Of a DNA stretch of 32,000 nucleotides, positions 1 to 20,138 are shown piece by piece. A program made the translations under genes and the position numbers. Origin of the DNA: Candidatus Altimarinota bacterium (GTDB lineage Bacteria; Patescibacteriota; Gracilibacteria; UBA1369); contig JBAZYK010000005.1 in the NCBI GenBank assembly GCA_041659405.1, positions 74,283 to 106,282 of the forward strand, given 5' to 3'. Each line of letters opens with the position of its first letter. Positions within the stretch are counted from its first letter, which is position 1. The notes beneath the pieces were generated by a model. The model did not search any database. It was not told the DNA's origin and saw nothing but the letters and a program-made list of their open reading frames with translations.

Positions 1-369
1 GTCCGTGAGGCCATGAAGAGCGACTGTGAAGTTTGGCTTTCCGGCGTGGCTTTGACCTTAAGTGAATTTGAAAATGTTGATGTTTTGCCTTCAAAGATTT
101 TCTTGTGTGGTGGCGGATCGTTGCTTCCGGAAATTAAAGAAGTGCTGGAAAGCCGTGACTGGACGCAAAAACTCCCCTTCCCTAAAAAACCACAGGTTAG
201 TTTTATGCAGCCAAAAATGATCAGCAATATGAGTGATGAGACCAAATTATTAAAGGATGTTCAGGACATTACACCGATGGCGCTGGCGAATATTGCGCTT
301 GAATATATGCAGGAGGAGCAGATTCTTTCGAAACTTCTTAAAAAAGTTGTACGATTAATGCAGATATAA
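1..369 (+). CDS. ftsA: C-terminal part of an FtsA-like actin-fold cell-division ATPase (5' end outside window)
   Basis: Frame 1 is open from base 1 (VREAMKSD...) to TAA at 367-369. The segment KIFLCGGGSLLPEI resembles the glycine-rich nucleotide-binding segment near the C-terminus of FtsA/actin-fold ATPases. The extreme C-terminus ILSKLLKKVVRLMQI is amphipathic, like the FtsA membrane-targeting helix. PilM-like is an alternative call. Confidence 0.55.
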   Translation, partial: VREAMKSDCEVWLSGVALTLSEFENVDVLPSKIFLCGGGSLLPEIKEVLESRDWTQKLPFPKKPQVSFMQPKMISNMSDETKLLKDVQDITPMALANIALEYMQEEQILSKLLKKVVRLMQI

Positions 370-374
370 AGGGG

Positions 375-459
375 GTTGGTCCTGCGAGGGAATTTCCTCC
401 TCGGACACAGGGCCCCTACCCCGGATGTCCGAGGAGGAAATTCCCTCGCAGGACCAACG
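375..459. repeat. Hairpin element copy 1: perfect 33-bp inverted repeat with a 19-nt GC-rich loop
   Basis: 375-407 GTTGGTCCTGCGAGGGAATTTCCTCCTCGGACA is the exact reverse complement of 427-459. The loop at 408-426 is CAGGGCCCCTACCCCGGAT. The 24-mer ACACAGGGCCCCTACCCCGGATGT (405-428) is identical to 2399-2422. Confidence 0.9.
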
Positions 460-481
460 AACATAATTAAAAAGTACATCA

Positions 482-2365
482 ATGGCACCTTTCAAGAAAA
501 ATTCGGCGAAAAGTTCTAAGGATTCTAAAAAAGAGGATCCAAAAATCATGGCTACTCGTCGGATTGGGAATACTGCCGATAAAGAAGAATCCGGGGTTGA
601 TGCCAGGGCTTTAAAGAGGCTGAATGCCAAAAAAGTCATTTATATAGAAATAGATGATGAAGTTACGCAGATTTACGACCGCCTGAAGCAGCTCAGAATG
701 AAAAATATATATATCGTGGCGCCAAAACGTGCGATTATTTTTCAGAGTATTATTAATTTGCGCATTCTTAAGCGAAAAGCGGAAGATCTTGGAAAAAATA
801 TTTATATAATTACCAATGATCTTAATGGAGTTCATTTGGCGACTCAAATTGGCTTAACCGTTTATGATAAGCTGGAAGGTCACGAACATCCAAGTCTGGT
901 TTCCGGTAAATTTCTTGAAGATCAACAGAATATTACGCCTTTAAAAGCCAGTATTAACGCGCTCGATGATGATGCTCCAACCCGACAGACCGAACGTAAA
1001 CTTTCGATTTCGGAAATGATCCGAACCGGAAAACGTAAAGGACTTGCCATTATCGCCAAAAATCTTAGTTTAAAAAAACAAAAAAAAGATGCTGCGAAAA
1101 AAGGTGATGATAAAGGAAAATTGGTTCTGGTCGCCCCAAACAGGCAGGCATTGATTGCTTTAATTGTGGTTAGTTTGATTATTTTGTTAACGATTACTTA
1201 CATTGCTCTGCCGGGTTCTACGCTTCACCTTACGCCAAAATCCAATGTATTAGAGACTTCCGTGAACATAATTTTGGCTGATGTGGATTTAAATCAGGGG
1301 GAACTGGACACGCATCCCGTTCATGAAATTCCAAGTTATACAATTACAACCACCATTAAAAAGGCCATGACTTATCAGGCAACCGGTAAAAACTTTCAGG
1401 GGCAGAACGCTACCGGAGTTATTACCGTAATTAATGCCAGCAACCAGCCTTGGCCGTTAATTGCCAATACGCGCTTCCAAACCAGTGAAAATCTGGTATT
1501 TAGGAGTCAAAAGTATGTAACGGTACCGGCCCAAAATGGCAATACCCCGGGGACAATTGATATTCCGGTTGTGGCTGACCCGCTGGATGCCATGAATCAG
1601 GTAATAGGAGAAAGAGGAAATGTTGGACCAACCAAATTCTTTTTACCGGGTCTTTCTGCGGACAACCAGAAGAAACTTTATGCGGAAAATAAGACGAATA
1701 TGACCGGTGGAAAAACCATTGTGAATAAACAAATAGCTAAAGAAGACTTGGCTGCGGCTCAAGCAAAAATGCAGGCTGATTTAAAGGCTTCCGCGCAGGT
1801 TGAGCTTCAATCCGTTATTAACAAACAAAACAATCAACAGAAGACAAATTTGGTGCTTTTAACTGATTCAAAAGCCATCCAGTCGGGTGATGCAAAGGTG
1901 ACGATTCCACCTAATCTGGAAGGGCAAAAACTGGATTCTTTTGATGTTCAGGGTGAAATTACGGTCAGTGGGGTGGCTTATGATCAGACGGAAATGATGA
2001 ATATGCTTAAATCAGAATTGAAATTAAAGAAGAATCCGGAAAAACGGTTGGTTCATATTGATGATAATTCCCTAACTTATCGTGTTGTGGATATAGACGC
2101 GGTTAATAAGAAGGTCAAAATAACCGCAACAATTAAAGGAATTGAAGAGTTCGAAATCAGTCCGGAAAAAGAAAATGGCGCCAGATTGATTAAGAAAATC
2201 AAGGAACATGTGGTTGGGAAGGATATTAAAGAGGCGCGCGATTATATTCAAAATCTGCCGGAAATTGATAAAGTTAAGGTTGATAGCTGGCCGGCTTGGG
2301 CGCCGACCATGCCAAGCGTGCCGGATAATATCCGTATTGATGTGGTTTCGGGGCAGGATAGTTAA
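482..2365 (+). CDS. Hypothetical single-pass membrane protein: charged N-terminal cytoplasmic domain, one TM helix, large beta-rich ectodomain
   Basis: 627-codon ORF from ATG to TAA. A hydrophobic segment ALIALIVVSLIILLTITYIAL lies around residue 225. The N-terminal module (IYIEIDDEVTQIYDRLK...IYIITND) and the ATGKNFQGQNATGVITVINAS stretch resemble widespread uncharacterised proteins of small-genome bacteria, as I recall them. Possible baseplate-J-like similarity is only a vague recollection. Confidence 0.8.
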   Translation: MAPFKKNSAKSSKDSKKEDPKIMATRRIGNTADKEESGVDARALKRLNAKKVIYIEIDDEVTQIYDRLKQLRMKNIYIVAPKRAIIFQSIINLRILKRKAEDLGKNIYIITNDLNGVHLATQIGLTVYDKLEGHEHPSLVSGKFLEDQQNITPLKASINALDDDAPTRQTERKLSISEMIRTGKRKGLAIIAKNLSLKKQKKDAAKKGDDKGKLVLVAPNRQALIALIVVSLIILLTITYIALPGSTLHLTPKSNVLETSVNIILADVDLNQGELDTHPVHEIPSYTITTTIKKAMTYQATGKNFQGQNATGVITVINASNQPWPLIANTRFQTSENLVFRSQKYVTVPAQNGNTPGTIDIPVVADPLDAMNQVIGERGNVGPTKFFLPGLSADNQKKLYAENKTNMTGGKTIVNKQIAKEDLAAAQAKMQADLKASAQVELQSVINKQNNQQKTNLVLLTDSKAIQSGDAKVTIPPNLEGQKLDSFDVQGEITVSGVAYDQTEMMNMLKSELKLKKNPEKRLVHIDDNSLTYRVVDIDAVNKKVKITATIKGIEEFEISPEKENGARLIKKIKEHVVGKDIKEARDYIQNLPEIDKVKVDSWPAWAPTMPSVPDNIRIDVVSGQDS

Positions 2366-2370
2366 GGGGC

Positions 2371-2450
2371 GTTCAGGGTTGTAGGAATATCCCTTCACAC
2401 ACAGGGCCCCTACCCCGGATGTGTTCAGGGATATTCCTACAACCCTGAAC
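2371..2450. repeat. Hairpin element copy 2: 24 bp + 2x2 mismatch + 4 bp stem carrying the same apex as copy 1
   Basis: 2371-2394 pairs with 2427-2450 (24 bp). 2395-2396 and 2425-2426 are mismatched. 2397-2400 pairs with 2421-2424. The apex at 2401-2420 is ACAGGGCCCCTACCCCGGAT. Confidence 0.9.
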
Positions 2451-2528
2451 ATAAGGATTTCCTTAATTTTTAATATCGGACCTAATTTAGCTATTTTATG
2501 GCTTGTTTTGCTTTTATGACCGCTACGC

Positions 2529-2556
2529 TTGACAAAATCGATCATTTGTGTAAAAT
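2529..2556 (+). promoter_or_regulatory. Sigma-70-like promoter candidate for the PKD-protein gene
   Basis: TTGACA at 2529-2534, a 16-nt spacer ending in TGTG, and TAAAAT at 2551-2556. It lies about 37 nt upstream of the ATG at 2593. AAGGA sits just before the ATG. Confidence 0.4.
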
Positions 2557-2592
2557 AGATCCTCAAGATACAATCTTTCATTAAAAGGATCA

Positions 2593-3690
2593 ATGAAACT
2601 AAGGAATCTAACAATTATCGGCTTACTTACACTACTGCTGCCGTCTGAAGCGACATTTGCCGCCTATAACAGCATGCTTGCGCCTACCAATTTTACGCCT
2701 GCGAATTACATTCAGCCGAGTTATGATCCTTTTTCTGCCAGCAATACCTATGCGCCAACTTTGCCGGAAGATCAACCGGATACTGCTCCCGTGGCCGCTT
2801 TTAATATTTACAATGGTGGGTTTTTCCAGAATAACAACGTGGGCACAACGGATACCGCCTTTACCTTTGATGGAAGCTCTTCTTATGATTCTGAAACCGA
2901 TTCTTCCCGCTTGGAAGTTCGTTGGGATTTTGAAAATGATGGCGTAATTGACGGTTATTTTTCGGTCATCAAAAGCATTAAACATACATTTAAAAAACCC
3001 GGAGTTTATCAGGTAAAAATGGAGGTTTTGGATCGTGCCGGAAATGTCTCCAAAGCCACCAAAACTGTAACCGTAGTGGCAAATACAGATCCGATTCCGG
3101 CATTTTCGTATACTCCTATAAGTGATACCAACAACACAATTTTTCAATTTGATACCCACGTTTCCAGAAGTGACCAGTTTGTGGCTTCAACTCTGCAATA
3201 TCGTTTTGACTGGAATGGCGACTCCAAATGGGACACAAAATATCAGGCAAAAACTATCTGGAATCATCTTTTTGACTCAGCAGGATCACACAATGTGATT
3301 ATGGAGGTAAAAGACCCGGGTGGTCATACTGCTAAGGTAAATAGGGCTATTTCTACTTTTGAAAATACCCCACCGGTTGCTTCTTTTGGAGTTTTTACCG
3401 GCACTTTTAGCAGCTATGAATTTAATGCGAAAGCTACGACAGACGCAGAAACTGCTCACTATCGTTTATTTTATCGCTGGGACTTTGAATATAGCGGCAC
3501 AAATGACATTATGTACAACACTTACGCCGGCAATACGGATCGTGTTTCTTACAATTATAAAACTCCCGGACATAAAATTGTGCGCCTGGAGGTAATGGAC
3601 GCATATGGCGCAAAATCCTATGCCTATGCCGAATTTGATGTTCCCTGGACTAAAGTGATGGCCCAAAATTTGATTGCGCCACTTAAGTAA
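2593..3690 (+). CDS. Secreted protein with three PKD-like domains
   Basis: The N-terminal signal-like peptide is MKLRNLTIIGLLTLLLPSEATFAAY. There are three roughly 90-aa repeats, each with a PKD-type signature: FTFDGSSSYD...RWDFENDG...PGVYQVKMEVLDRAGN, FQFD...RFDWNGD...GSHNVIMEVKDPGG, and EFNAKATTD...RWDFEYSG...PGHKIVRLEVMDAYG. Confidence 0.85.
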   Translation: MKLRNLTIIGLLTLLLPSEATFAAYNSMLAPTNFTPANYIQPSYDPFSASNTYAPTLPEDQPDTAPVAAFNIYNGGFFQNNNVGTTDTAFTFDGSSSYDSETDSSRLEVRWDFENDGVIDGYFSVIKSIKHTFKKPGVYQVKMEVLDRAGNVSKATKTVTVVANTDPIPAFSYTPISDTNNTIFQFDTHVSRSDQFVASTLQYRFDWNGDSKWDTKYQAKTIWNHLFDSAGSHNVIMEVKDPGGHTAKVNRAISTFENTPPVASFGVFTGTFSSYEFNAKATTDAETAHYRLFYRWDFEYSGTNDIMYNTYAGNTDRVSYNYKTPGHKIVRLEVMDAYGAKSYAYAEFDVPWTKVMAQNLIAPLK

Positions 3691-17219: not shown

Positions 17220-20138
17220 ATGCGCTTCAACGAACAATACACTGTCGAAAATTTTATTCTGGATTTCTTTCAGAAGCCTTTGGGTTATGAATATATTCCG
17301 CCGCAGAAGTTTGCCGCTTTTAGGCAGTTTGAAAATGAGTATGTTATTACTCCCCTTTTGCTTGATGCTGTTAAGAAAATCAATAAAATACATGATGATA
17401 CTGAAGCGCAAAATGTTGTCCGTGAGATTAAAAAGATTGATACAAATGAAGGTTTTTTGAATTTGATGCGGAATGGAATTAACCTGAAAGATCCCGCGCA
17501 GGCAGGTCGCATGCGCGATTATTTTGTGGTCGATTTTGAGAATCTAAAAAATAATCATTTTGTGGTTACAAATCAGTTTTATTTTGAGGGAAATGCGGAA
17601 AATATTCGTCCGGATATTTTGGTGTTTTTGAATGGCTTGCCGATTGCCGATATAGAGGCTAAAAGCCCTACTGCTGCCAATAATGTTAATTATGAAAAGG
17701 CCATTGATCAGCTGAAACGTTACGAGAAAAATGCCTGGAAACTTTTTTTGCCGAACTGTTTTAATGTTGCTACAGATGGCCTTAAAACTGTTTATGGTGC
17801 TACATATAGCCCTAAACAGCACTTTTTACAGTGGCGCGATGATGTATTAGCTCAGTTTTTTGGTGGTGAATTGGAAATGACTTTGGGGGCTCTATTCCAT
17901 AAAGAAAAACTGCTGGATATAATCAAGAATTTTATTCTGTTTGAAAAGGAAAAAGAGCGAACCACCAAAAAGATCTGTCGTTATCAACAATATCGGGCAA
18001 CCAACCTGATTGTGGATCGCGTAAAAGGCGCCGAAAAGAAGCGTGGGCTTATTTGGCACACCCAGGGCAGCGGCAAGAGCATTACGATGTTTTATACAGC
18101 CTGGAAGCTGCGTTTTGATCAACAACTAAAGAATCCAAAGATTTTTGTTTTGGTGGATCGCATTGATCTTGATGATCAGATTTATCAAACATTTACAAAC
18201 TGTGGAGGGGAAAACGTGGTGCGGGTGACTTCACGCAAGGATTTGGAAAGCAAAATTCGCTCACCGGAACGTGGTATTTTCATTTCAACAATTCAAAAAT
18301 TCAGCGAGCTTGAAGACGAAATTAAAAGTCTGGACCACAATACAATTGTCCTTTGCGATGAAGCCCATCGTGATAATGAAGGCGTTGCCGCAATTAACCT
18401 GCGTTCGGCGCTACAGAATGCTTTCTTTTTTGGGTTTACCGGAACTCCAATTGACAAAAAAACTCTCAATACTCATCGCAATTTTGGTGAAGAGGGCGAG
18501 CGTTATTTGGACTATTATTCCATTCAGCAAGCGATTGAAGATGGCACAACCCTGCCGGTAACTTTTGAAGCCCGTCTTTCCAAGTTTTTTATTGATGAAG
18601 AAAAAATTGATCAGCAGTTTGAAGAATTTGCCGCTGATTTAAGCGAAGAGCAAAAAACAAAACTTATTCAAAAATATGGCAAAAAAGCTTCATTGGTAAA
18701 GCTGGATAAGCGCATGGAAGCCATTGCGCAGGACATTGTTGAGCATTATAAGCTTTATGTGGAGCCAAATGGCTTTAAAGCGCAAATTGTTTGCGCAGAC
18801 CGTGAAGCCTGTGTGAAATATAAAAAACTTTTGGACAATTTGATTCCCGCAGATTGGTCGGCCATTATTTACTCTGCAGGCGATCCAAACAGTAGCAATG
18901 AAAGCGAAGAGGAGACAAAAAAATACAATACAACCAAGCCGGAAAGAGAAAGAATGATTGAAAATTTTAAAGATCGTGAAAATCCGTTACGATTTTTAAT
19001 TGTCTGCGACATGCTTTTGACTGGTTTTGATGCGCCAAATGAACAGGTAATGTATTTGGATAAGCCTTTGCGTGACCATAATTTGCTGCAGGCTATTGCG
19101 CGCACAAATCGGGTTTATCCTAATAAGGGTTGTGGGAAAATTATTGATTATTACGGAATCACCCGTAATTTGTATGCTGCGCTGGATTTTGATGAAAGCA
19201 TTGTCAGTTCAGCAATGTTGAATATTGATGAGTTTAAAAAGCGATTTACGGCTGTTTTAGACGAAGTTATGAAGCTATTTAATGGTTTCAACATTGAAGA
19301 TCCTTCTTTGGGGAATTTGCGCAGATGTTTGAAGGTTTTTGTTGATAATGCTGAACAGCAAAACTATTTCCGGACGTTATATACAGAATTAAAACAACTT
19401 TTTGAAATTTTATCTCCTGATCCTTTTTTGAAGGAGCATTTGCGTAAATTTGAATGGTTGACGAGTTTGTTTTTGGCTTTTACTAAAGAATTTGGAGAAC
19501 AAAATGGTGGCCATGAATTGGCGGAATATGGTGAGAAAATGAAGACTTTAATCCAGGAAAATGTTGATTATGAAGGCATTACCAAGAATTTCAGGGAAAT
19601 GCGCATTCATGACATGATGACTTTGCAAAAATTGGAAAAAATGGATGATGAGGAAAAATCTTTGTGCCTTGAAAAAATGTTAGCTCATGAAGTTAGAACA
19701 AATCTTGATTCAGCACCAATTTTTAAGACTTTCAGCGAGCGTCTGCGGACAATCAGGGAAGAATTTGAGAAAAATCAGATTGATTTAGCCGAACGAATCA
19801 AAAAATATTATGATTTGTTGAAGGATATTCAAAAAGCCGAAAAACGCGGGGAAGAGCTTGGCCTTGATCTGCGTGAATATGGTTTATTTGCGATTTCTGA
19901 GGAGTTTATTAAAATTGATCAATCCTTGCTTATCGCGTTTATAAAAGAAATGGCTAAGCGCTTATCTGAATTGTTAGACAAAAACTGGCAGGAATCTTCA
20001 AAAAAAGAAGAGTTTATTAAAGAAATTAAACGAATAATCCAGGAAATGGTTCTTAAAGAATATAAAGACCAGATTATTGTCCAGGATTTTCAAAAATATC
20101 TAAATCGTTTGATTGATGTGATCGTGAAAAAGTTCTAG
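17220..20138 (+). CDS. hsdR: Type I restriction enzyme R subunit HsdR (nuclease plus SF2 translocase)
   Basis: The PD-(D/E)xK-like nuclease motif is PDILVFLNGLPIADIEAKS. The helicase motifs are HTQGSGKSITM (I), LCDEAHR (II), FGFTGTP (III) and QAIARTNR (VI). A long helical C-terminal domain follows. Confidence 0.95.
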   Translation: MRFNEQYTVENFILDFFQKPLGYEYIPPQKFAAFRQFENEYVITPLLLDAVKKINKIHDDTEAQNVVREIKKIDTNEGFLNLMRNGINLKDPAQAGRMRDYFVVDFENLKNNHFVVTNQFYFEGNAENIRPDILVFLNGLPIADIEAKSPTAANNVNYEKAIDQLKRYEKNAWKLFLPNCFNVATDGLKTVYGATYSPKQHFLQWRDDVLAQFFGGELEMTLGALFHKEKLLDIIKNFILFEKEKERTTKKICRYQQYRATNLIVDRVKGAEKKRGLIWHTQGSGKSITMFYTAWKLRFDQQLKNPKIFVLVDRIDLDDQIYQTFTNCGGENVVRVTSRKDLESKIRSPERGIFISTIQKFSELEDEIKSLDHNTIVLCDEAHRDNEGVAAINLRSALQNAFFFGFTGTPIDKKTLNTHRNFGEEGERYLDYYSIQQAIEDGTTLPVTFEARLSKFFIDEEKIDQQFEEFAADLSEEQKTKLIQKYGKKASLVKLDKRMEAIAQDIVEHYKLYVEPNGFKAQIVCADREACVKYKKLLDNLIPADWSAIIYSAGDPNSSNESEEETKKYNTTKPERERMIENFKDRENPLRFLIVCDMLLTGFDAPNEQVMYLDKPLRDHNLLQAIARTNRVYPNKGCGKIIDYYGITRNLYAALDFDESIVSSAMLNIDEFKKRFTAVLDEVMKLFNGFNIEDPSLGNLRRCLKVFVDNAEQQNYFRTLYTELKQLFEILSPDPFLKEHLRKFEWLTSLFLAFTKEFGEQNGGHELAEYGEKMKTLIQENVDYEGITKNFREMRIHDMMTLQKLEKMDDEEKSLCLEKMLAHEVRTNLDSAPIFKTFSERLRTIREEFEKNQIDLAERIKKYYDLLKDIQKAEKRGEELGLDLREYGLFAISEEFIKIDQSLLIAFIKEMAKRLSELLDKNWQESSKKEEFIKEIKRIIQEMVLKEYKDQIIVQDFQKYLNRLIDVIVKKF

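Follow-up and report, generated by a model that had tools for sequence, protein, structure and literature searches.

The window, that is, the whole 32,000-nt stretch of DNA analysed, is part of contig C5 of the genome under study (Candidatus Altimarinota bacterium, assembly GCA_041659405.1; hereafter G000), an ultra-small bacterium of the candidate phyla radiation (CPR) with a 1.51-Mb assembly, 40% GC, and 98.5% completeness. Near the start of the window, two intergenic hairpins with one apical sequence and different stems follow ftsA and the next gene, and these hairpins and their relatives are the subject of this work. In copy 1, the left arm (375-407, 33 nt, plus strand), which retains the family blocks GGAAT(T)T and CCTCGGACA, is 100% complementary to the 33-nt right arm at 426-458, as delimited by arm complementarity and RNA folding. 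The perfect 33-bp hairpin of the original prediction was borne out, while its right arm (427-459) and 19-nt loop were off by one: the loop is the 18-nt sequence CAGGGCCCCTACCCCGGA at 408-425, matched exactly in 23 copies of the genome. Positions 410-422 within it (GGG/CCCCTA/CCC) fold as a mini-hairpin with a 3-bp G-C helix and a 6-nt loop. The plus-strand RNA of copy 1 folds at -75.3 kcal/mol (shuffled sequences, -34.2 ± 3.4; z = -12.2) and the minus-strand RNA at -79.5 kcal/mol. Copy 2 has a 31-nt left arm (2371-2401) with the family motif CCCTTCACACA, near the consensus GTTCAG..GGAATAT..CTTCACACA, the same apical 18 nt at 2402-2419, and a right arm with TGTGTTCAGGG at 2420-2450, all on the plus strand. 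Its stem is 94% paired, differs in sequence from that of copy 1, and contains a 2 × 2 internal loop, CU/UC on the plus strand and GA/GA on the complementary one; the fold is again more stable on the minus strand (-62.0 vs -55.2 kcal/mol). The recurrence of the copy 1 24-mer ACACAGGGCCCCTACCCCGGATGT on this different stem was confirmed as an exact match at 2399-2422, with no match in 100 shuffles.

Both copies start 5 nt past a TAA stop codon and share the bound GAACATAA at the 3' side, as the original prediction had noted; the GAACA in that bound is merely the family consensus 3' end (CTGAACA). The stems are followed by GAACATAATT (copy 1) and ATAAGGATTT (copy 2). Neither is a T-tract, and a terminator scan of window positions 1-3000 predicted none, in agreement with the view that these are not canonical terminators. 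A comparison of the window hairpins with Rfam gave only generic microRNA-hairpin matches far below threshold, and no family was assigned. Upstream of copy 1 lies the 3' end of ftsA (1-369, plus strand, TAA stop at 367-369), whose full-length protein matches the Pfam family FtsA (PF14450) at 1.5e-19. Between the two copies, an open reading frame of 627 codons (ORF627; 482-2365, plus strand) has no Pfam match and is kept beside ftsA in four relatives at 57-84% identity. Copy 2 lies 75 nt upstream of a strong sigma-70-like promoter on the plus strand (TTGACA-16-TAAAAT, 2529-2556, 11/12 consensus matches), which precedes a gene for a PKD-domain surface protein (2593-3690). Since this next gene has its own promoter, copy 2 is taken to mark the end of the ftsA-ORF627 transcription unit.

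The original prediction described a two-member family, which is correct inside the window only; genome-wide, about 30 copies exist. The apical 18-mer occurs 23 times exactly and 28 times at up to three mismatches, nhmmer detected 30 copies, and a covariance model added a few. All copies are intergenic, usually 0-30 nt from the neighboring open reading frames, and measure 76-86 nt, their stems running to about 30 bp. Ten of them lie in the region of rpoB, EF-G, EF-Tu, and the S10-spc-alpha ribosomal proteins, where copies follow rpoB, tuf, L2, L22, secY, infA, S13, S4, and rpoA; others are found downstream of atpA, atpD, groES, greA, ftsH, hsp20, ftsQ, recR, and lepB. In the ribosomal-protein cluster, the distance from the hairpin to the next start codon is rather constant (18-26 nt), the hairpin standing just ahead of an AT-rich leader. 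Genes of this genus have AT-rich TAATTA-type leaders (e.g., GTAATTAATAATTAGTAATTGTGG-ATG) with no obvious Shine-Dalgarno sequence, as seen in the sister species of the same genus (G001), on contig C3 of G000, and at 459-481 of the window. Four copies bear minor tips that vary by substitution of the central 8-9 nt. Two tandem hairpin doublets were observed on contig C6 (58993-59145 and 77276-77428); their second elements are near-identical, and the first retains only the inner half of the right arm, so that the doublets could have arisen either by insertion of an element into an element with deletion or by recombination of copies via their identical tips.

The strand complementary to the one read in the window, with the tip GGGGTAGGGGCCC, is referred to as the G strand. 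The sense strand of the mRNA is the strand read in the window for 11 copies, including both window copies, and the G strand for 13. In 22 of the 30 copies, the G strand lies on the strand with more C than G; neighbors less than 1 kb apart can differ. A strict orientation rule relative to replication was rejected on account of such disagreeing neighbors.

The structural statistics were derived from an alignment of 24 copies of G000 with 30 consensus pairs. Paired cells amounted to 95.5%; shuffling of the columns lowered this share to 71.7%, and sliding the structure along the alignment lowered it to 31-44%. At least one double (compensatory) change was found in 26 of the 30 consensus pairs, and the covariation score was 0.60 against 0.16 in shuffles. 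Pairwise identity was lowest in the outer arms (0.41), intermediate in the inner arms (0.67), and highest in the 18-nt tip (0.97). Because the outer arms are near-random in identity yet paired, and the tip is 97% identical, pairing and the tip are evidently what selection sees. The element is thus built of three layers: an outer stem in which only pairing is kept, an inner stem with fixed non-Watson-Crick positions, and the GC mini-hairpin tip.

The fixed non-Watson-Crick positions lie at 7, 8, 11/12, and 15 pairs from the tip. On the strand read in the window they are C·U, U·C, U·C, and A·C mismatches; the G strand shows the same positions as a tandem G·A/A·G (5'-CUGAAC / 5'-GUGAAG), another G·A, and a G·U. 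The G-strand fold was the more stable one in 24 of 24 copies of G000, 14 of 17 in genome G017, and 5 of 5 in genome G006, and the CTTC.../...TCAG motif reappears in other genera. Sporadic transition mismatches favored G·U on the G strand by 15 to 3, and by 10 to 0 where the other strand is transcribed, a pattern that is no more than suggestive. Conserved mismatches were fewer where the weaker strand is the mRNA sense strand (mean 1.9 vs 3.5), and the arms of these copies were further from the consensus (Mann-Whitney p = 0.001, with relatedness not corrected). The simplest reading is that the single-stranded form of the G strand would be under selection during propagation, since the conserved mismatches are benign on one DNA strand only, whichever is transcribed.

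Comparison with relatives, which like all genomes other than G000 in these comparisons are metagenome-assembled genomes (MAGs) of varying completeness, indicated lineage-specific gains. The distance from the ftsA stop to the next start is 112 nt in G000, 24 nt without a hairpin in the sister species, 13 nt in G006, 2 nt in G017, and 1 nt in G014. The sister species has no element at the four junctions checked (after ftsA, after ORF627, S4-rpoA, and rpoA-L17), and the G000 copies are therefore regarded as recent insertions that postdate the split of the sister species. Conversely, one copy in the sister species has no counterpart at the corresponding G000 site; it follows a gene whose G000 orthologue is 94.6% identical. 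At the atpD-atpC junction, the spacer is 0-27 nt in 15 genomes of the taxonomic family, and G000, G006, and G004 each carry a family hairpin with differing orientations and tips. Three genera have thus each gained the hairpin there on their own. Hairpins also occur around hsp20 in three genera. The flanking direct repeats of 24 copies showed no excess (mean 1.83 vs 2.38 in permuted controls). Of the proposed small non-autonomous element with a duplicated TAA, the dispersed, lineage-specific insertions were upheld, and the interpretation of the TAA...TAA bracket as a 3-bp target-site duplication was rejected by this permutation test. An origin of the arms by copying of flanking host sequence was likewise rejected, the orthologous spacers in relatives being unlike the arms.

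For the 13-mer GGGCCCCTACCCC, the count is about 18 hairpins in G017, five in G006, and one each in G001 and G014; the stems of the hairpins that bear it differ entirely between genera. The covariance model built on G000 was applied to 36 genomes of the GTDB family and detected the hairpins in 14 of them, representing 13 of 25 genera and usually holding 1-3 copies each. The copies found in this way share the inner motif and carry other tips, for example GGGGCCCCAACCCC, GGGGCCCCTTCCCC, TCGCTTYGCTGCGG, and CCTCGTTGCGACGAGG. In a sample of 400 genomes of the class, only chance-level matches that are not hairpin tips were found outside the GTDB family, and a metagenome scan for the 18-mer gave only chance matches in GC-rich DNA.

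The reading preferred here, to which a probability of roughly 0.55 is assigned, is that a mobile repeat some 80 nt long, hairpin-shaped and non-autonomous, gave rise to both window hairpins; in function it would resemble REPIN, Correia, or ERIC elements, and its entry into intergenic spacers would postdate the split of the sister species. A mobile non-autonomous element is indicated by the lineage-specific presence, dispersal, lack of target duplication, and mixed orientation of the copies. It would propagate via a single-stranded hairpin of the G strand; this process would need the tip and the pairing, and hence only these would be conserved. The mobilizing enzyme would fall outside the known transposase families and may be encoded outside the assembled genome. 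After insertion, a copy would be co-transcribed with its neighbors as a very stable RNA stem-loop, which could act as a barrier to 3' exonucleases or as an RNase III target. It would not terminate transcription. Copy 1 would lie within the ftsA-ORF627 message and copy 2 at the 3' end of that message. RNase III substrates contain a duplex of at least about 20 bp in a transcript; copy 1 provides a 33-bp duplex inside a predicted transcription unit, and an RNase III gene is present in G000. A role of the inserted copies as structured 3' untranslated regions or RNase III substrates, as the original prediction offered, is plausible.

Candidates for the mobilizing enzyme were sought by six-frame searches of G000, which gave no Y1_Tnp/RAYT (PF01797), TnpB, reverse transcriptase, IS110, DDE_Tnp_1 (PF01609), rve (PF00665), or Viral_Rep (PF02407); no RVT_1 reverse transcriptase was detected anywhere in the genome. 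RAYT/IS200, TnpB, IS110, DDE, rve, reverse transcriptase, and Rep proteins of circular Rep-encoding single-stranded (CRESS) DNA viruses were accordingly set aside as mobilizers. In the search for Y2_Tnp (PF04986), the control stayed silent too. Most of the transposase families searched were also absent from the other copy-rich genomes, Y1/RAYT being absent from G000, G017, and G006. The sister species has a RAYT-like Y1 transposase gene (HFH motif, YIHENPV, WPYSS; L051, 1396-1866, contig C8) convergent with uvrA; in the set of 36 genomes, RAYT and hairpins are found together in three, which is no more than chance would give. No half-elements flanking a gene were found in G000, and no recurrent neighbor gene was seen beside the single copies of other genera, where the flanks are ordinary metabolic genes. 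Two tyrosine recombinases of G000 are encoded on contigs other than that of the window.

Several other loci of G000 are also of note. At C11:57494-63186, a tyrosine recombinase stands beside repeated modules of about 300 nt that end in CGAACGTT(R)... sites, an integron-like array with sites unlike the hairpins. Ten paralogues of about 350-520 aa with an N-terminal ParB/helix-turn-helix (HTH)-like region and a C-terminal HNH motif are distributed over contigs C1, C3, C4, C7, C8, C11, and C17 (e.g., C4:58639-59871), and most of them hold a perfect palindrome of 12-20 bp inside their own gene (TGTGCACGTGCACA, CCGTCCCGGGACGG, AAAGTCCCCCGGGGGACTTT, and others). A link of these nucleases with the hairpins was rejected, as their internal 14-bp palindromes are unlike the tip or arms and none adjoins a copy. 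In the spacer C11:53489-53923, a tRNA-like gene (GCCGCAGTAGCTCAGCC...GGTTCGATTCCCGACTGTGGCTCCA) is split in the anticodon region by an insert of about 200 nt and may be an intron-bearing tRNA.

Several points weigh against the mobile-repeat reading. No mobilizing enzyme was found in a genome of such completeness, and the RAYT-like gene of the sister species has left no remnant in G000 (best tblastn E-value, 0.36), though uvrA of G000 is 92% identical. There is no clean alignment of an empty with a filled site, because the spacers have diverged too far, and the ends of the element are not defined. The G·U excess drops to 8:3 without the positions close to the conserved A·C, and the copies are interrelated. 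Finally, host selection could explain equally well the enrichment by highly expressed genes and the repeated gain at one junction; both observations are compatible with insertion into exposed single-stranded DNA as well as with retention for usefulness.

Among known systems, REP units are 20-40 bp long, with stems of 5-13 bp and, at one end, an unpaired tag of GTAG or CGTC (PMC3733652), and REP/REPIN repeats are mobilized by RAYT (Y1 HUH) transposases (PMC3733652; PMC3116915). The hairpin family resembles them as a set of small extragenic palindromic repeats in dozens of copies, mostly downstream of open reading frames between co-directional or convergent genes, with no target duplication and probably transcribed as hairpins, and the extragenic, multi-copy habit is shared. 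It also has a GTAG in its conserved part, on the complementary strand (GGG-GTAG-GGGCCC). However, its members are 76-86 nt long with a stem of about 30 bp, their GTAG is located only within the apical loop, their stem sequence is hypervariable whereas that of REP families is conserved, and RAYT is lacking in the three copy-rich genomes. A further comparison is offered by the repetitive hairpin-forming elements (RHEs) and GC clusters of mitochondrial genomes, which are short GC-rich hairpin repeats; the RHEs of sponges are an example (PMC2800124). These, too, invade the intergenic spacers of compact AT-rich genomes and have no known transposase, but they are organellar, have no invariant tip across hosts, and are unrelated in sequence to the present family.

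The Correia elements (CREE/NEMIS) of Neisseria and the ERIC/IRU repeats of enterobacteria are hairpin-forming intergenic repeats of about 100-150 nt that occur in operons and are co-transcribed; RNase III cleaves the Correia transcripts, and a protein-binding site lies at the centre of the Correia element. To our knowledge, no transposase is known for either. Both have conserved terminal inverted repeats and Correia elements duplicate a TA target, in contrast to the present family, which has variable arms, conserves the tip and inner stem only, and shows no duplication. Miniature inverted-repeat transposable elements (MITEs) derived from DDE insertion sequences have sequence-conserved terminal inverted repeats, a target-site duplication, and a parent insertion sequence with matching ends; here the outer-arm identity is 0.41, target duplication is absent, and G000 has no parent insertion sequence or transposase. 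The single-strand origins (sso) of rolling-circle plasmids and the minus-strand origins of single-stranded DNA phages are long imperfect one-strand hairpins with a short conserved loop motif and a variable stem. A further likeness is the presence of the same tip in CRESS virus genomes away from the nick hairpin, but such an origin is a single-copy functional part of a single-stranded DNA replicon, while the family has 30 chromosomal copies in both orientations.

An alternative, considered possible though unlikely, is that the hairpins are host-selected RNA elements, a form of operon punctuation (3'-exonuclease barrier or RNase III site) that sets the relative levels of highly expressed neighbors; whatever their origin, the hairpins would be retained for their usefulness. 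The copies do cluster after rpoB, tuf, ribosomal-protein, atpA, atpD, groES, greA, ftsH, and hsp20 genes, three genera have gained a hairpin at atpD-atpC, the length is near-constant at 76-86 nt with very strong pairing, and G000 has the RNase III gene that one version of this explanation calls for. The lower number of conserved mismatches in copies whose weaker strand is sense (1.9 vs 3.5) would here reflect repair, and a hairpin with the same tip and a covarying stem stands between infB and rbfA in Microbacterium. Against this, the sister species lacks the hairpin at four junctions and most relatives have spacers of 0-27 nt, so that no copy can be essential; orientation is mixed and the structure is optimized on one DNA strand regardless of transcription; and a simple exonuclease block needs no invariant tip of 13-18 nt.

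The tip itself extends beyond the host group. In the form GGG(G)CCCCTACCCC, it caps unrelated hairpins in Actinobacteria, Clostridia, Bacteroidota, tailed phages, and CRESS-DNA viruses, as well as one helix of the Clostridiales-1 RNA; counts from the viral and genome scans are lower bounds. One tailed-phage fragment in IMG/VR (record G431, L183 + L184; 22.4 kb, 38% GC) carries a single hairpin of about 165 nt capped by AGGGCCCCTACCCC, which lies at 18641-18720 among small early genes. The phage calls of this fragment comprise small terminase and amidase matches, with the large terminase, portal, and tail recognized by eye only. Since a tailed-phage fragment bears a hairpin with the same tip, phages of the host group may ferry the element. 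In unrelated phages of 39-62% GC, GGGGCCCCTACCCC caps imperfect palindromes of 100-170 nt, one per genome among the matches listed. In at least 30 or so small viral contigs, the same sequence folds as a mini-hairpin, frequently atop a longer stem; these contigs were inspected around the motif and for domain content only. Matches to Viral_Rep and/or RNA_helicase confirmed that five of the small contigs are CRESS-DNA viruses, and eight hold a separate canonical nonanucleotide stem-loop (CAGTATTAC or TAATATTAC), for which reason the tip mini-hairpin is not the nick site of those contigs. Among the matches listed, the tip stood in hairpin contexts in 7 of 121 viral cases and the control 14-mer GGGGCCCCATCCCC in 0 of 80; at least three directly adjacent flanking pairs were present in 16 of the 121 viral and 21 of 132 genomic matches listed, against 1 of the 80 for the control. 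At least two extra adjacent pairs accompanied 60 of the 132 genomic matches listed, where about 6% would be expected.

In GTDB species genomes, TGGGGCCCCTACCCCA occurs at no fewer than 120 loci. It is multi-copy in MAGs of Clostridia/Oscillospiraceae, Acidimicrobiia, Armatimonadota, Chloroflexi, and Verrucomicrobia, in an isolate of Neolewinella lacunae, and in four Microbacterium isolates. In these four cultured Microbacterium species, the infB-rbfA hairpin is about 70 nt long and its stem covaries between species. One Acidimicrobiia MAG (L391, 5965-6253) has four tandem repeats 91 nt apart, with TGGGGCCCCTACCCCA within CTCCTCCCACAGA...TCGTGGGCCGT, and related Acidimicrobiia MAGs carry the same TGGGGCCCCTACCCCA repeat many times, at times after a second mini-hairpin, TGGGGCCCCAACCCCA. 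In the Clostridiales-1 RNA (RF01699; L507, 6-170, and L505, 7720-7885, at 128 and 119 bits), the tip of hairpin 2 is the 16-nt UGGGGUAGGGGCCCCA; this RNA shares only the tip with the window hairpins, in two genomes. No paper containing the tip motif was found in the literature collection searched. Both the detection of the stem family, under varying tips, in 14 of 36 genomes and the occurrence of the tip on unrelated hairpins elsewhere are new results. A library or assembly artefact was rejected, since the arms are not flank-derived, copies recur across independent assemblies, and cultured isolates bear them on covarying stems. Restriction-site avoidance was rejected as well, GGGCCC and CCGG not being depleted.

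As a tentative suggestion, the 14-nt mini-hairpin GGGG-CCCCTA-CCCC, which reads GTAG and then the palindrome GGGGCCCC on the opposite strand, could be a unit of its own that moves between replicons and settles in existing hairpin loops. The modular behavior of the tip, with the same stems under other tips and the same tip on unrelated stems, supports but does not prove such a tiny self-moving unit, which, if real, would be among the smallest known mobile or horizontally shared nucleic-acid modules. The fuller two-level scheme, in which the mobile unit is the 14-nt mini-hairpin invading the loops of pre-existing hairpins and the ~80-nt CPR hairpin is one carrier that was later multiplied, is improbable. 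It draws on the stem family with different tips in 14 of 36 genomes and the four G000 copies with other tips, on the identical tip on unrelated stems in tailed phages and CRESS-DNA viruses, on its multi-copy state in many bacterial phyla including cultured isolates, on its place on hairpin 2 of the Clostridiales-1 RNA, and on the excess of adjacent flanking pairs over the control among the matches listed. However, no loop was found in matched empty and filled forms, the G000 tip variants differ by substitution of the central 8-9 nt and not by clean insertion, and a shared function of the tip, rather than mobility, could explain the distribution. We know of no mechanism for moving 14 nt, which also counts against it. 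If the scheme were true, the CPR hairpin family would be a carrier that the 14-nt unit helped multiply.

An intrinsic (Rho-independent) terminator or attenuator is very improbable. The start of both window copies 5 nt past a stop codon and the position of copy 2 ahead of the next promoter are what such an element would show, and some G017 copies and three G000 copies lie between convergent genes with stems flanked by A-runs and T-runs. But no U-tract follows the window copies and the scan predicted none; many copies separate genes that need co-transcription (groES-groEL, S13-S11, L2-S19, and atpD-atpC), and stems of at least 30 bp with an 18-nt tip are far from terminator geometry.

Integron attC sites are recognized as folded single strands in a strand-specific manner, with conserved structure, conserved unpaired positions, and free sequence. 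A folded single-strand recombination site of this type or a rolling-circle (HUH Rep) origin or nick hairpin is close to refuted: conserved structure with variable sequence, strand-specific mismatches, the lack of target duplication, the integron-like array of G000 beside its tyrosine recombinase, and the same tip in Rep-encoding small viruses all speak for it, but the stem ends GTTCAG...CTGAAC have a polarity opposite to the attC R''/R' boxes (RYYYAAC...GTTRRRY), attC has conserved boxes at the base and a variable tip and lies at cassette 3' ends in arrays next to an integrase, while the family conserves the tip and separates essential housekeeping genes rather than cassettes, the attC-like sites of G000 itself look different, no Rep or HUH gene was found (Y1/RAYT and Viral_Rep, with the silent-control Y2_Tnp search), and the CRESS contigs retain their canonical origin, the nick hairpin, as another stem-loop than the tip hairpin. 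Of the single-stranded hairpin read by an HUH-type enzyme that the original prediction had also proposed, the structural side agrees with the conserved tip on a variable stem, the strand-specific mismatches, and the absent duplication; the enzyme side does not, in that neither G000 nor the other copy-rich genomes yielded an HUH gene in the Y1/RAYT and Viral_Rep searches.

As a rule, small palindromic repeats are explained by a cognate transposase and have conserved arms, and the hairpin family departs from both; what it holds constant is its fold, the purine-purine mismatches of one strand, and its tip. Under the mobile-repeat reading, it is a natural test case for structure-specific mobilization of single strands outside the RAYT and integron systems. 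The host is uncultured, and the identical tip in culturable Microbacterium and Neolewinella provides an experimental handle. For the CPR bacteria themselves, stable hairpins placed between highly expressed and normally tightly coupled genes, such as those for ribosomal proteins, ATP synthase, chaperonins, and cell division, should affect mRNA processing.

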